This document shows, piece after piece, positions 6,413-62,470 of a stretch of 64,000 nt of DNA (positions are counted from its first letter, which is position 1; every line of letters begins with the position of its first letter). Position numbers and translations under genes: made by a program. The notes beneath the pieces were generated by a model. It did not search any database. It saw only the letters and a program-made list of their open reading frames with translations, and was not told the origin of the DNA. This DNA comes from Escherichia phage ECBP2, in sequence record NC_018859.1; one strand, given 5' to 3'.

Positions 6413-6431
6413 TTTATAATTGGAGGTATTT

Positions 6432-7442
6432 ATGGGTGCTGGAGGTTTTCGTAAGAATACTGGAAGAAACAACACCACACTTCCCTACAACGTTGGGTTT
6501 CTAAACAATGTAGAGGATACGGATAAATATAACGTTGCAGTTTATGATGAATTACAGAAAGTCAGTACAGCAACCAATCAAATGTTCCAAGCAATCGACG
6601 AGATTCATGATGAGATAGATGTTCGTATTAAAGCTCTTCATGCAATGAATCTACAGTTCGATGAACTTGAGAACCGAATTACTACAGAGATTGAAACAGC
6701 AATTGCTGATATCCAAACACAGATGGGTAATCTATCCACTGAAGATATTTGGGATAGAAGCACTAATCCTCCTACTAAATTGGATGGTACAGTTGCAGGT
6801 TTCAAAACTTCTATTGAAGGTAATGACTTAAAGATTCAGACAGTACAAGGGATTGTGAACGAACAGGGAGAGGAGATTGCTTTAGTTCAAACAGAACTTA
6901 CTGCTCAGGGTACTCAGATTGCTGAAGTGGATGGTAAGGTTACTACCGTACAGAACTCTCTTTCTCAATACATGAGATTAGACAGCTATGAAGCTACATG
7001 GGGTGTCAACTCTTCTGTTAACGGTCAGTATGCTGGAGTTAAACTTACTAACAACGGTACGAATAGTCAATTCCAAGTAACAGCTAACAAGTTTATTGTC
7101 GGTGATGGTAACTCAGGTAACACACCTTTCGTATTTGAAGGCGGTAGGGCTAGGATGGAGTTCGCTGATATTAAGAACGTCAACATTACCACAGCTCAGA
7201 TTGCTAATGCTCGTATTCAGTTTGCTCAGATTGATAACGTGTGGATTACTGACGGTCAGATTGCTAACCTTACTGCTAACAAGATTACTGCTGGTTCTAT
7301 GAGTGGTTCTAATTGGAGACTTACAGTTGGTGGAGATTTTGTTATGGGTGGTACAGGTGGGGCACAGCTGTGGATGAATGGTAACAGGATTGATTTCTAC
7401 GATGGTGGTGGTGCTTTGAGAATTAGAATAGGGAGTTGGTAA
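6432..7442 (+). CDS. virion structural protein (coiled-coil N-terminus, fibre-like repeats)
   Basis: Track ORF starts at TTG 6420; ATG at 6432 has a GGAGGT RBS; repeats ITTAQIANARIQFAQIDNVWITDGQIANLTANKITAG. Confidence 0.5.
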   Translation: MGAGGFRKNTGRNNTTLPYNVGFLNNVEDTDKYNVAVYDELQKVSTATNQMFQAIDEIHDEIDVRIKALHAMNLQFDELENRITTEIETAIADIQTQMGNLSTEDIWDRSTNPPTKLDGTVAGFKTSIEGNDLKIQTVQGIVNEQGEEIALVQTELTAQGTQIAEVDGKVTTVQNSLSQYMRLDSYEATWGVNSSVNGQYAGVKLTNNGTNSQFQVTANKFIVGDGNSGNTPFVFEGGRARMEFADIKNVNITTAQIANARIQFAQIDNVWITDGQIANLTANKITAGSMSGSNWRLTVGGDFVMGGTGGAQLWMNGNRIDFYDGGGALRIRIGSW

Positions 7443-7443
7443 T

Positions 7444-8463
7444 ATGGCGTATGGAATATGGTGTCAACCAGTGGGGCCGGGTCCAGCTACTCCGGCTGCT
7501 TTGTTTATAGATAGTAATTTAACATTTCCACAATATCTAGGGGCTTTTAGTATATCCCCTTCTTGGAGTGCAAGGAATGCCTCTTTTACTGTCGGTTCCT
7601 TTGACGGACAAGGTGAGTTGCTTATTGTTCCTACTAGTCGGTTGATTCAAGATTATTATGTTGGTACAGACCTGATGCCAAGCTTCAGCACTGTCACTGG
7701 CATAGGAACCTCTGGTCAGACTGTTAATATAAATATAGACCCAGCTGGTGCGAGTGGTAACAACAACCGTAACTTCCCCATGAGCTTTCAAGCCTATAAA
7801 CTCTGGCCTAGAGGTAATAGGAGTTATGGTATCACTTTCTCTAACTCAGCTGACTTCTTCTCTATCTCTGATAGTGGAGTTGTTGGTCAATGCACTTGGG
7901 CATACAGAGGTGGTGTTGGTGACGGCTTCACTGTTCCTAATGCTGGACCTAATGCTCTGGTTTTTGCCAATTGGAGTCAGGGAGGTGTGTGTGTTGGTTA
8001 TAATCCAAGTAATAGTCAAATGATTATTACTCACAATAGATCTAATCAATCTGGTAATAACAGAGGGGCTTCTGTTGGAGACATGCGAATAGCAGTATTT
8101 GCCAGTGGTGTAGGAGTTCCTGAGCACAATGGTGGCCTAAACATCTATTCACCGGGGACTACTTCTTGTGTCTTTTCTACCTACAGAACTCCTTTTGCCA
8201 TAAACAGATTCTTCCCTTCTAGTGGAGGAGGTACTGGATTAGGTATTCCTATGATGTGCCTTAATACTACTAATGGAGCTATAACTGGTCAAGGTGGGGG
8301 TTGGATGTGGGTTCATGAAAGAACACATACAATGGAGAATGGTACTGTTGGTACAGGTTTTGGACCTCTGGTTGCTAACTGGACAGATCAATATCCAATC
8401 AATGTAAATATAAATTTGAACTTCACATACCCAATGCTAGAAGGTTCTTTAATATACGCTTAA
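7444..8463 (+). CDS. virion structural protein
   Basis: 339 aa ORF tightly packed in the structural operon; Gly/Asn/Ser-rich. Confidence 0.45.
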   Translation: MAYGIWCQPVGPGPATPAALFIDSNLTFPQYLGAFSISPSWSARNASFTVGSFDGQGELLIVPTSRLIQDYYVGTDLMPSFSTVTGIGTSGQTVNINIDPAGASGNNNRNFPMSFQAYKLWPRGNRSYGITFSNSADFFSISDSGVVGQCTWAYRGGVGDGFTVPNAGPNALVFANWSQGGVCVGYNPSNSQMIITHNRSNQSGNNRGASVGDMRIAVFASGVGVPEHNGGLNIYSPGTTSCVFSTYRTPFAINRFFPSSGGGTGLGIPMMCLNTTNGAITGQGGGWMWVHERTHTMENGTVGTGFGPLVANWTDQYPINVNINLNFTYPMLEGSLIYA

Positions 8464-52716: not shown

Positions 52717-53013
52717 TTATTTGTGAGAGTTTACGAACTCTTCAAGAACATTAACTGCATCTCGATATGCATTGGTAACTTTATACCAGTGATCAGTACC
52801 GAATGCACTCGGTTTGACGATTCTAACCAGACGACGGTGATAACGCACTGAGTAGACTAGATTCTCATAAGTCACCCTCAGTTCGTTTTTGCGTTCCATC
52901 TGAATAGATTTAAGGTGTCGCTTTGTTTTCCAGACTGTTACCGGCATAACCCTCTTACCTTGTTGTAAAGTATGGACCAATTTATGAAAGAACTCTCGGA
53001 AGAATGCTTTCAT
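52717..53013 (-). CDS. hypothetical basic protein
   Basis: 98-aa ORF. Confidence 0.4.
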   Translation of the reverse strand: MKAFFREFFHKLVHTLQQGKRVMPVTVWKTKRHLKSIQMERKNELRVTYENLVYSVRYHRRLVRIVKPSAFGTDHWYKVTNAYRDAVNVLEEFVNSHK

Positions 53014-53231
53014 AAATAGGGGGAGGGGACGAATCCTCCCATATCCTATTAATTAATGTTGCATGTAAGACCTAACAATCCGATGCTGTAGTGGATAGCG
53101 TAAAACGCTTACCGGCATTAAACCCAGCCCATGAGGGGCTTATGTGATTAAAATGCTCAACATTGAGCGGTTAGTTGATAGGAGATCTGAAGTCCTATCT
53201 CAAAGGACTCTCGTAAGAATCCTTCACGATA

Positions 53232-53486
53232 TTACTTAGTAATAAAGACTGTCACCTTATCCATTACCCAGCCTATCAACATAAGGAAAGGTAAGAAGAG
53301 GATAAAGATCAGCATAAAAGGCCAGAAGAATATTACCGTCCAAATAGAATATTCATCAGGCTTACCACTCCATGAGGAATGGAAGAAGTTGTAGAGTGTA
53401 TTGGTTTTGAAGCACCATTTAACTACAATGGCTGCTAACCACCAACCAATAACATAAATCAGGAGGACATACGCTGCTGTAATCAT
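53232..53486 (-). CDS. small multi-TM membrane protein
   Basis: Three hydrophobic segments, Trp-rich. Confidence 0.4.
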   Translation of the reverse strand: MITAAYVLLIYVIGWWLAAIVVKWCFKTNTLYNFFHSSWSGKPDEYSIWTVIFFWPFMLIFILFLPFLMLIGWVMDKVTVFITK

Positions 53487-53713
53487 TCACCGTTCCATTG
53501 ATAGTTGCGAGTTACCACGTTTCCGTGGATAAGGAAGTGCTGGCGGCGAAGGATATCTTTAACGTTGTAGTAGGCAGCGTTACCGAGATGGCCTTCTTTA
53601 ATAAGCCAACGAAGATTACGGATATCAACCAACAGCATTTTTACTTGCTGTTGGCATGAAGTTTGAGCTGCTGTTTCAAGTAGAGCTTTCGTATCAGAAT
53701 AATGACCGGACAT
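53483..53713 (-). CDS. hypothetical protein
   Basis: 76-aa ORF. Confidence 0.4.
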   Translation of the reverse strand: MSGHYSDTKALLETAAQTSCQQQVKMLLVDIRNLRWLIKEGHLGNAAYYNVKDILRRQHFLIHGNVVTRNYQWNGE

Positions 53714-53714
53714 A

Positions 53715-54041
53715 TCACCACTCCTTACCTGTTGTTGTCACAGAGCCACCACACAGCTCACCACGGGAGATGAAGTCATAACGTGACCAATCACCTTGGG
53801 TAGCCATATCACGCTTTGCATAAGCCTTCTCGTCAACAGCACCGCCATTGGAACAAGAAGCACCAGCATAACGCATATCAATTTCACCACTAGGAATCTT
53901 CTCCCCGCTGTGCCAACGGGAAACACAGACACCTTCTACCGATAATGCACACCATCCATCAGGACGATGCTGTACGCAGCCTGTAAGAGCTACACAGGCG
54001 ATAAAGATACAGGTTAAGGTAATTACACCACCCCAGCTCAT
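53715..54041 (-). CDS. Cys-rich lipoprotein
   Basis: Signal peptide ending in lipobox LTGC; eight further Cys. Confidence 0.45.
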   Translation of the reverse strand: MSWGGVITLTCIFIACVALTGCVQHRPDGWCALSVEGVCVSRWHSGEKIPSGEIDMRYAGASCSNGGAVDEKAYAKRDMATQGDWSRYDFISRGELCGGSVTTTGKEW

Positions 54042-54178
54042 GATCCCTCCTGAAGCGCCTTACGGCGGCTATCTCGCCAAGCCATCCAAGTGTAGATTTT
54101 GAGTTCTTCTCTTTCTTCTTCACTGAACAAACGAGGAGTGAAGATATCATCAAACCATTTATTAAACTCAGGGGTCAT
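54038..54178 (-). CDS. small protein (46 aa, below track cut-off)
   Basis: AGGAGG RBS; stop overlaps the lipoprotein ATG. Confidence 0.3.
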   Translation of the reverse strand: MTPEFNKWFDDIFTPRLFSEEEREELKIYTWMAWRDSRRKALQEGS

Positions 54179-54294
54179 ATACCCTCCTACGTTGATTGGT
54201 AGCCCCAAGATGCCGTATCTTATCCAACGACCCCATACAGACCTATAGGCTATTGTATGGCGCCGAAGGAGTACGCAAGCATCTTAGGGACATA

Positions 54295-54370
54295 TGGTGC
54301 ACCCTACAGGATTCGAACCTGTAACCAACGACTTAGAAGGTCGCTGCTCTATCCATTGAGCTAAGGGTGC
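54295..54370 (-). tRNA. tRNA-Arg (anticodon UCU), CCA encoded
   Basis: GCACCCTTAGCTCAATGGATAGAGCAGCGACCTTCTAAGTCGTTGGTTACAGGTTCGAATCCTGTAGGGTGCACCA folds as a cloverleaf: 7-bp acceptor, GCTC/GAGC D-stem, anticodon loop CUUCUAA, T-arm ACAGG-TTCGAAT-CCTGT. Confidence 0.85.
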
Positions 54371-54379
54371 TTGAATTGT

Positions 54380-54688
54380 TTATAAGGAGAAAGACTTCTT
54401 ACAATCCTTATCTTCAAAAGTGTAGTAGCCTGTTGTATCAGGGAAGTAGGCATACTTTGTTTCTTTGCCATCAGTAGCCATGACACGATTACCAGAAGTT
54501 GTTTCTACAAACAGAAGCCCATCTCTTACCATACCATTAGATTCTTTGATACCAGTTAAGCTATGCTCTTTAAGAGTGCATTGCTGAACACTCTGATACT
54601 TAACTCCAATCTCTGCACTATTAACAGAGATGATACCAATGGTTGTCATTAGTAGTAAGGTTGAGATGATAAAATGCTTTTGTTTCAC
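54380..54688 (-). CDS. secreted protein
   Basis: Signal peptide MKQKHFIISTLLLMTTIGIISVNSA. Confidence 0.45.
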   Translation of the reverse strand: MKQKHFIISTLLLMTTIGIISVNSAEIGVKYQSVQQCTLKEHSLTGIKESNGMVRDGLLFVETTSGNRVMATDGKETKYAYFPDTTGYYTFEDKDCKKSFSL

Positions 54689-54706
54689 ATTAACCTCTGG
54701 ATTTAT

Positions 54707-54916
54707 TTAACTGAAGATACGCAAGGCCACATCGTGATAGATATGACCGGGGACTTTGTGCTGTTCTATTTTCAAACAGCGTTTACAGACACGAGATACA
54801 CGAGACTCTTTCGCTTCAACTGGAGTGTCTTTAGCGTGAGTGATATGTAAGTTTTCAGTGATCACCCACTCGTGTTTACATCCAGAATCTTCGGGCTTTT
54901 TCTTACGAAAGAACAT
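54707..54916 (-). CDS. small zinc-ribbon-like protein (family with the next two)
   Basis: CKHEW...CKRC. Confidence 0.4.
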   Translation of the reverse strand: MFFRKKKPEDSGCKHEWVITENLHITHAKDTPVEAKESRVSRVCKRCLKIEQHKVPGHIYHDVALRIFS

Positions 54917-54924
54917 AACACCTC

Positions 54925-55089
54925 TTAGATCAAATCTGTTTTCTTGTGCTTACCACACACTTTACAGCGGGAGTAGATACGCAACCCTTGCTGCTCTCCT
55001 CCAGCAATACGATGTGTAACCTTTAGTTCATAAGTAGAAAGATCTTCCCACTCATGGAAATGAAAGAAACGTTTGAACCATTTAATCAT
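54925..55089 (-). CDS. small zinc-ribbon-like protein (54 aa, below track cut-off)
   Basis: MIKWFKRFFHFHEWEDL...CKVCGKHKK. Confidence 0.35.
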   Translation of the reverse strand: MIKWFKRFFHFHEWEDLSTYELKVTHRIAGGEQQGLRIYSRCKVCGKHKKTDLI

Positions 55090-55098
55090 AACGATTCC

Positions 55099-55245
55099 TT
55101 AGATTATGTCACGATGACTAACTTCACCACACACTTTACACTGGATATCGTAACGTACGCCCCTTGAATCTCCACAGATCAGCGGACGGGTGGCAATAAT
55201 CTTCCAATCATGACAATGAAAGACACGCTTTATCCACGTAATCAT
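55099..55245 (-). CDS. small zinc-ribbon-like protein (48 aa, below track cut-off)
   Basis: MITWIKRVFHCHDWKII...CKVCGEVSHRD; paralog of the previous. Confidence 0.35.
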   Translation of the reverse strand: MITWIKRVFHCHDWKIIATRPLICGDSRGVRYDIQCKVCGEVSHRDII

Positions 55246-55246
55246 A

Positions 55247-55504
55247 TTAAACACACGCCGGTAGTTCAATTAACTGAGGAGCACGACAAGGACCATCTTC
55301 ATACACACCAACCAACGTTGGCATGTAAGGCCCAGCGCACTGGTATTCGTCGAACAGTTCGTTATAGTTAGGCTTCCACTTCCAAGCCCACACATAACCC
55401 ATTCGATCAATGGCAATGTAACGAGTGTTCAGAGGAACCTGCATCATCACATCACCAACTGCTATTACTTTCGTAATAACTGCTGCTCGGAAATTTGTCT
55501 TCAT
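55247..55504 (-). CDS. hypothetical protein
   Basis: 85-aa ORF. Confidence 0.4.
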   Translation of the reverse strand: MKTNFRAAVITKVIAVGDVMMQVPLNTRYIAIDRMGYVWAWKWKPNYNELFDEYQCAGPYMPTLVGVYEDGPCRAPQLIELPACV

Positions 55505-61499: not shown

Positions 61500-62470
61500 T
61501 AGGAGAATGTTTAAATTGTTAAAGAGCGGTAAATCTATCAACGTGCTTTCTCACGTTATGCAACTGTTAGCCGTTGTTACGCTTTTCACTGAAGCGGTGA
61601 TTTGCTCAAGTGATGCTCATTATGGACCATGTTGTTTTTGCCGTCAATCACTTTTTTAATCTTTTTCGTCGTTCCCGCTATTGGGAGGATATATCAACCC
61701 GCTTTATTGGGTTGAAGATTAAGCGATGAGGCTTAACCCATGATTCATATTGTTAAAGAGCGTTTAGCCTTTTATAGTGTCTGCTAATCACTACATCATT
61801 AAAGGCTTACTTGTTCATTAACGGGGCGCCTAAGCCCGAACTACCCGCTGCACTATGTGCCACCTTTCCCGCGATACGTTGATTTGGGAACTAGTTAACG
61901 TTGTTTTGTTAACTTGTGGTTAGTATGGACTACCTTAACCACGTTTGCAACCTCTTTTTTATCATCTTCTTTTATTCTTTTCCCTTATCTCGCGTGAATC
62001 TATGCGAAAGGGCAAGATGATAAGTCTGATTTGTCTTTTAGGAATCTAGTGCGCTTTCAAGCATTGACCATTTGAAAGTATCGAACAAATGAGGCTTATT
62101 TTGTTGCTCATCGTCCGCATGTTCACGTATGAATCAGGAATCAATTCTAGTGGTCAACTAAGCGCCTTATAGTAATGACGTTCCCGCCACCTGTAAGACA
62201 AATCATATTTTTAAAGAGCGGGATTTTTCAAGTCATCGCTGACTATGCTCACTATATATCAGGCTTTTTCCGGTGTCAATACTCTTTTTCAAGTATTTTC
62301 ACTTTCTAGCCTGATTTTTAAAGAGCGGGGCAATTTCTTGCCTTGTATGTTTTACATCGTACCCGATGAAATGAAGTATACATTAATCAGATGAGGTTGC
62401 AATAGGGTAAAGCAAATTATTTTAAACTTTTTCACTATAGGGAGGTAAAAGAGCGGGCGCACGTGATACA
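61500..62470. repeat. dispersed copies of an AAAGAGCG(G) motif in a non-coding region
   Basis: TTAAAGAGCGG-like sites at about 61515, 61753, 62214, 62325 and 62449, plus 63701; no ORF of 60 aa or more between 60793 and 62352. Confidence 0.45.

Follow-up and report, generated by a model that had tools for sequence, protein, structure and literature searches.

The structure of Rtp45, an exclusion lipoprotein of ~6 kDa from siphophage Rtp, has been determined in complex with LptDE(M) of Shigella (Dunbar and van den Berg, PMC12685063). Rtp45 contacts LptD from the periplasm, close to strands 5-8, with its residues 30-35 in a β-sheet with LptD residues 318-323, and it contains a Cys30-Cys38 disulfide (PMC12685063). 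A long hairpin of Rtp45 rises inside the LptD lumen, and extracellular loop 4 of LptD is shifted by up to 20 Å, so that the phage receptor-binding protein cannot bind (PMC12685063). Small siphophages use Rtp44-type proteins as receptor-binding proteins of the LptD type, and the receptor-binding protein of phage Oekolampad has been seen on open LptDE (structure 9RPT, chain C). In siphophages, the J-like fibre tip is the presumed attachment place of such a separate receptor-binding protein. Here we describe members of both protein families in a stretch of 64,000 nucleotides (the window, to which all positions refer) of Escherichia phage ECBP2 (NC_018859.1), an E. coli podovirus of the Gordonclarkvirinae (Kuravirus-like, phiEco32/SU10 group). 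One is a lipoprotein of 108 amino acids (aa) encoded on the minus strand at 53715-54041, and the other a protein of 339 aa encoded on the plus strand at 7444-8463.

A lipoprotein of the Rtp45 family

A preliminary description of this region, made from the DNA letters, had proposed a lipobox lipoprotein at 53715-54041, and the open reading frame (ORF) proves to be a real gene. Its ATG start lies behind a Shine-Dalgarno sequence (GGAGGG) and overlaps the stop codon of the upstream ORF (ATGA). The N-terminus is hydrophobic, with a predicted signal peptide (residues 1-21) and the lipobox L19-T20-G21-C22, in which cleavage would precede Cys22. A PROSITE-type lipobox pattern gave 10 matches in 1,587 start/ORF combinations of the window; of these, this protein alone combines a real gene start with strong hydrophobicity. 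The cysteine count given previously, eight in addition to that of the lipobox, was wrong. There are seven in total (positions 11, 16, 22, 31, 39, 63, and 97): two in the signal peptide, the lipobox Cys22, which is predicted to be lipidated, and four in the mature part. From these sequence rules and from homology we infer that the protein is exported.

The lipoprotein matches Pfam family PF24052 ("Phage lipoprotein family") over the entire profile (positions 1-80 of 80) with 123.4 bits and an E value of 3.5e-36, against a cut-off of 27 bits; Rtp45 itself scores 128 bits. A phmmer search of all PDB sequences returned one real match, Rtp45 (9RPS chain D, E = 1.4e-15). Within the mature part, 29 of the 54 positions that can be aligned with Rtp45 are identical. 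Residues G21, C22, C31, C39, G46, G52, D55, R57, G60, E107, and W108 are invariant in an alignment of 12 members from podoviruses and siphoviruses. The conserved hairpin spans approximately residues 40-59 and includes P50, which is invariant or nearly so in members from both virus types, and the C-terminal KEW is kept.

In the Gordonclarkvirinae versions, unlike in the siphovirus proteins, the hairpin and the C-terminal tail are separated by an insert, which has 8-33 residues across these versions and 33 in ECBP2. It is bracketed by two extra cysteines, Cys63 and Cys97, a pair absent from every siphovirus member aligned. The simplest reading is that these residues form a second disulfide, which would staple the variable loop and preserve the geometry of the core. 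The profile, structure-database, and motif matches show this protein to be a new Rtp45-family member in a new viral setting.

Kinship with Llp of T5 and the Cor proteins, other lipoproteins that disable a phage receptor, was rejected: T1 Cor reaches 17.7 bits against PF24052 (cut-off 27), with similarity in the signal peptide only, and no Llp chain occurs among the PDB matches of the lipoprotein at E <= 10. A reading as a defence system was also considered and rejected.

A receptor-binding-type protein next to the tail needle

The 339-aa product of 7444-8463 (+) is the equivalent of SU10 gp19. It belongs to phrog_1265 (E = 1e-88), a family that also includes Rtp44, Bas85_0027, Bas14_0025, and Sfin5_0037, and it matches Pfam PF20051 (DUF6453) with 92.9 bits (cut-off 25). 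Residues 24-316 match the Oekolampad receptor-binding protein in the PDB (9RPT_C, E = 2.3e-10). These profile searches of PHROG, Pfam, and PDB found the gene, which a tblastn search of the window with Rtp44 had missed. An AlphaFold2 (AF2) model built with 31 homologues has a predicted local distance difference test score (pLDDT) of 78 and a predicted template modelling score (pTM) of 0.79. Its sole significant PDB match in Foldseek is again 9rpt_C, with an E value of 1.6e-12, a probability of 1.0, and template modelling (TM) scores of 0.67 (target) and 0.52 (query).

Relatives of this protein are annotated as "membrane protein" or "hypothetical". There is no transmembrane segment in the sequence of the DUF6453 protein, so the usual "membrane protein" label is an inherited annotation. 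Conservation among the podovirus alleles is strong in the N-terminal 20 residues and in two internal blocks, and the remainder is variable, a pattern that fits an anchored receptor binder.

The DUF6453 gene sits between the needle gene and the ejection-protein genes. Directly upstream, at 6420-7442 (+), is the gene for the tail needle, the equivalent of SU10 gp18 (PDB 7Z4B, E = 1e-178), which contains a Pfam Phage_Tail_Tip domain (E = 5e-26). By BLASTP the needle matches residues 905-1136 of Rtp43, the J-like tail tip of phage Rtp, in an alignment that reaches the C-terminus of that protein (E = 4e-6). This homology suggests that the needle and the DUF6453 protein correspond, in the podovirus, to the fibre tip and receptor-binding protein of siphophages.

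Distribution and linkage

The Gordonclarkvirinae comprise Kuravirus, Suseptimavirus, and their relatives, that is, the prolate podoviruses of the phiEco32/SU10 group. Region 53000-55500 of the window has matches in ~107 E. coli and Shigella phage genomes of 68-79 kb each; the top matches, Bas86, Bas88, Bas87, and SU7, are 92-94% identical and all belong to this group. With a core ejection protein as the group marker (97 records), a full-length DUF6453 homologue was found in 97 of 97 phage records and the lipoprotein in 95 (E <= 1e-20). Both genes are essentially universal in the Gordonclarkvirinae of E. coli and Shigella. No DUF6453 protein is encoded by the negative control, T1, which uses FhuA as receptor and Cor as exclusion protein.

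The lipoprotein and DUF6453 genes lie 46 kb apart on opposite strands, one in the putative early and the other in the late module. In Rtp, Bas14, Bas85, and Sfin-5 the two genes are adjacent and beside the J-like gene, unlike in the window. The Klebsiella Webervirus siphophages also encode both a PF24052 lipoprotein and a DUF6453 protein, unlinked, with the lipoprotein gene amid DNA-metabolism genes. An example is Klebsiella phage vB_KpnS-VAC11 (lipoprotein at 2495-2722 of the examined stretch, DUF6453 protein at 65-862 of the record).

Late genes for the tail and for ejection occupy the plus strand at 0.1-17 kb of the window, and the right-hand third is a long series of small minus-strand genes. 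The lipoprotein had been placed in an early region, and this placement receives qualified support from homology with phiEco32 and SU10: the probable early genes of SU10 (CDS69-125) and YF01 (gp82-122) were themselves so assigned by analogy with phiEco32. An ORF-poor spacer upstream on the strand of the lipoprotein contains three matches to sigma-70-like promoters (11/12, 10/12, and 9/12 positions) at 62202-62402 (-), and this cluster fits the early promoter cluster published for phiEco32 and SU10. Promoter and terminator scans around the lipoprotein locus gave no excess over shuffle expectation.

Proposed exclusion mechanism

We consider it likely that the lipoprotein is an LptD-directed superinfection-exclusion factor with an Rtp45-like mode of action. 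The preliminary description had suggested superinfection exclusion or receptor masking for the envelope proteins of this region; for the lipoprotein, strong homology to Rtp45 supports this idea well and points to LptD as the target. The protein would be transcribed together with the early genes, exported by Sec, lipidated at Cys22, and, with Val at +2, sorted to the inner leaflet of the outer membrane. A Cys31-Cys39 disulfide would form, and Cys63-Cys97 would probably staple the group-specific insert. We predict that LptD is then bound at the periplasmic rim of its barrel, as it is by Rtp45, and that the conserved β-hairpin is pushed up the LptD lumen, forcing extracellular loop 4 outward. LptD would thereby be held in a state closed to DUF6453-type receptor-binding proteins. 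Siphophages that depend on LptD would be excluded from the infected cell; if the DUF6453 protein is the terminal receptor binder, the same would hold for additional ECBP2 particles. Progeny would also be spared from loss on envelope debris.

Regarding the receptor, it is possible, and we propose it tentatively, that LptD serves as the terminal receptor of E. coli and Shigella Gordonclarkvirinae. The gp19-type DUF6453 protein, at the needle tip, would dock to LptD after O-antigen binding and trigger release of the needle and formation of the nozzle, and the early lipoprotein would subsequently shut LptD once the first genome has entered. In favour of this idea, the gp19-type gene is universal in the group and is placed within the tail module, and the needle is homologous with the fibre tip of siphophages. 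In the literature we found no paper that links Gordonclarkvirinae with LptD, DUF6453, or Rtp45, and no test of these phages on lptD mutants.

Alternative explanations

Several observations weigh against the proposed mechanism or against the proposed receptor. In the lipoprotein, the n-region is atypical in lacking Lys and Arg; the core shares 44-54% identity with Rtp45; and the C-terminal half is enlarged by the 33-residue insert. (AlphaFold 3 predictions of the complex are reported to be wrong even for Rtp45; PMC12685063.) The DUF6453 protein is 23-26% identical to proven LptD binders, and its receptor could differ. Relative to the window, the lipoprotein of Bas87 is 94% identical and its DUF6453 protein 47%, and those of EcoN5 are 60% and 91% identical, respectively; allele types of the two proteins thus assort independently, with no co-variation. 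The model of the BASEL study has O-antigen and then, by analogy to T-even phages, the lipopolysaccharide (LPS) core as receptors, not LptD. Mass spectrometry of SU10 particles detected 34 proteins, gp16-18 and gp20-24 among them but not gp19, which is also unmentioned in the SU10 virion structure, gel, and supplement; the description of YF01 likewise skips the equivalent gene. The mass-spectrometry negative is softened by the few usable tryptic peptides of gp19 (six of 7-30 residues, versus fourteen for gp18), but it is still a real caveat. The undetected gp19, the published model in which short fibres bind the LPS core, the unlinked genes with their independent alleles, and the Webervirus lipoprotein, which is also away from any tail gene, are all compatible with a function restricted to cross-exclusion. 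The lipoprotein would then bind LptD and shut out rival LptD-dependent siphophages, the podovirus would adsorb to the LPS core via its short fibres, and the DUF6453 protein would either not be a receptor binder of the virion or have another target. We regard this as unlikely, given that the DUF6453 gene is full length in every one of the 97 genomes and lies between needle and ejection genes, that the protein combines a conserved N-terminus of 20 residues with variable surface segments, as expected of a receptor binder anchored in the virion, and that the needle shares homology with the fibre tip presumed to bear this receptor-binding protein in siphophages.

Two other functions would separate the lipoprotein from exclusion. 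In favour of an o-spanin or u-spanin that disrupts the outer membrane late in infection, the 64-kb window encodes no other credible lipobox protein, spanins have not been reported from this phage group, and a GenBank record calls one distant homologue a "u-spanin". However, the lipoprotein has no C-terminal transmembrane segment, its neighbours have no i-spanin features, and ~50 kb separate its gene, in the putative early region, from those for holin and endolysin in the late module. Moreover, Rtp carries a separate spanin in addition to Rtp45, and Rtp45 was solved as a ligand of LptD. With the lysis-cassette location, the i-spanin partner, and the C-terminal transmembrane segment all lacking, the spanin reading was rejected, and we give it next to no weight. 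Alternatively, binding to LptD could serve host takeover by throttling the export of LPS and O-antigen, which would remove the primary O-antigen receptor. Gordonclarkvirinae depend on O-antigen, and Rtp45 keeps LptD in a closed-type state, but Rtp45 was co-overexpressed with LptDE in good yield with toxicity unreported (PMC12685063), and LPS already present would outlast a short infection cycle. Host takeover therefore appears very improbable, and exclusion directed at LptD is the function that we favor for the lipoprotein.

Other genes near the lipoprotein

The region around the lipoprotein contains a tRNA-Arg gene (anticodon TCT) at 54295-54370 (-), predicted by ARAGORN; Bas86, SGF2, and pEC-N1203-2Af.1 have it annotated in the corresponding position. 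The lipoprotein gene and a signal-peptide gene at 54380-54688 (-) had been said to flank this tRNA. The tRNA does lie between them, but a small ORF at 54038-54208 (-), a member of phrog_9481 with no assigned function, separates it from the lipoprotein gene. The stop codon of this ORF is the one that overlaps the lipoprotein ATG. Its real start is probably Met11, with an ATG at 54178 behind AGGAGGG; the counterpart annotated in Bas86 is a 141-nt version.

Two genes downstream of the lipoprotein, the product of 53232-53486 (-) has 84 aa and includes two hydrophobic stretches that resemble transmembrane segments. This protein is also present in Bas86 and has no significant PHROG or Pfam match; from its sequence it is possibly a further early envelope protein. 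On the other side, at 54707-54916, 54925-55089, and 55099-55269 (-), are three tandem small ORFs of 69, 54, and 56 aa. They appear to be paralogues, with common [C/H]xH[E/D]W and CK[V/R]C motifs that are zinc-ribbon-like.

The ORF at 54380-54688 (-), previously proposed to encode a protein with a signal peptide, does exist, and sequence rules indicate Sec-type features. It encodes 102 aa, with a mature part of ~78 aa, and falls only in phrog_23590. A GTG start lies 5 nt after GAGG, and this start and ribosome-binding site are kept in NJ01, PE006, and pEC-N1203-2Af.1, one of which has another upstream neighbour. The predicted signal peptide has K2, K4, and H5 (KQKH), 17 hydrophobic residues (6-22), and a cleavage site at VNS24|A25 (VNS|AE). 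Cys37 and Cys96 lie near either end of the mature protein. Several GenBank records, including PE006 and pEC-N1203-2Af.1 (1540-1809 of the examined stretches), place the start at Met14 (89 aa), which omits the signal peptide and the conserved GTG start.

Copies of this gene occur in 10 phage records, always beside the tRNA; all are at least 93% identical and differ by 2-7 substitutions. Bas86 and SGF2 lack the gene at this locus, which identifies it as an accessory cassette, most likely gained as a small unit next to the tRNA. A word-indexed search found only copies at least 89% identical, and no match was detected in Pfam, NCBIfam, PADLOC, PDB sequences, or 5,426 E. coli genomes. HMMER on 1.84 billion representatives returned no real relative beyond its own cluster; the one other match, to a eukaryotic tyrosine phosphatase with fibronectin type III (FN3) repeats, was judged spurious. 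The AF2 model is all-beta and of low confidence (pLDDT 58), and its fold matches are uninformative. The product is most likely a small β protein of the periplasm, exported by Sec and disulfide-bonded. A role as another envelope-directed competition factor is a guess that we make with low confidence.

Implications

Gordonclarkvirinae are common, restriction-resistant E. coli phages employed in therapy work, and the LPS core is no more than the assumed terminal receptor in the current model. LptD, the LPS translocon, is both conserved and essential, so that its use by a podovirus group, if true, would matter for phage steering and for the evolution of resistance. Exclusion directed at LptD would also predict antagonism in cocktails that combine Kuravirus-like phages with LptD-dependent siphophages. 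If the proposal is correct, a full module of receptor binder and exclusion protein is common to siphoviruses and podoviruses, with its halves in different temporal classes. In GenBank, ~95 genes labelled "hypothetical protein" and ~97 labelled "membrane protein" are open to re-annotation.

Comparison with known systems

T5 Llp and the Cor proteins of T1, phi80, and N15 resemble the predicted activity of the lipoprotein, in that each is a small phage lipoprotein at the periplasmic face of the outer membrane that disables the receptor of its own phage. Their target is FhuA, however, and they have no sequence relationship to the product of 53715-54041; T5 Llp also differs from Rtp45 in acting by long-range allostery, with no loop displacement (PMC12685063). 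The DUF6453 protein shares with Rtp44 and the Oekolampad receptor-binding protein its Pfam and PHROG families, its fold, and a gene position right after a homologue of the tail-tip fibre. It differs in its identity of 23-26% and its podovirus needle context, and its place in the virion and its receptor are predictions.

The closest systems are Rtp45 and SE-Oeko of Oekolampad (Bas18). In common with these, the lipoprotein belongs to PF24052 and has the lipobox, a pair of the Cys30-Cys38 type, the hairpin sequence, and the C-terminal KEW, and a DUF6453 gene of the receptor-binding type is present in the same genome. The ECBP2 protein has 108 aa in place of 73-76 aa, with the extra C63 and C97 found only in Gordonclarkvirinae versions. 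Rtp45 and SE-Oeko are encoded in siphoviruses directly beside the receptor-binding protein gene, whereas the lipoprotein described here is encoded by a podovirus, in a putative early region 46 kb from the gene of the receptor-binding type.

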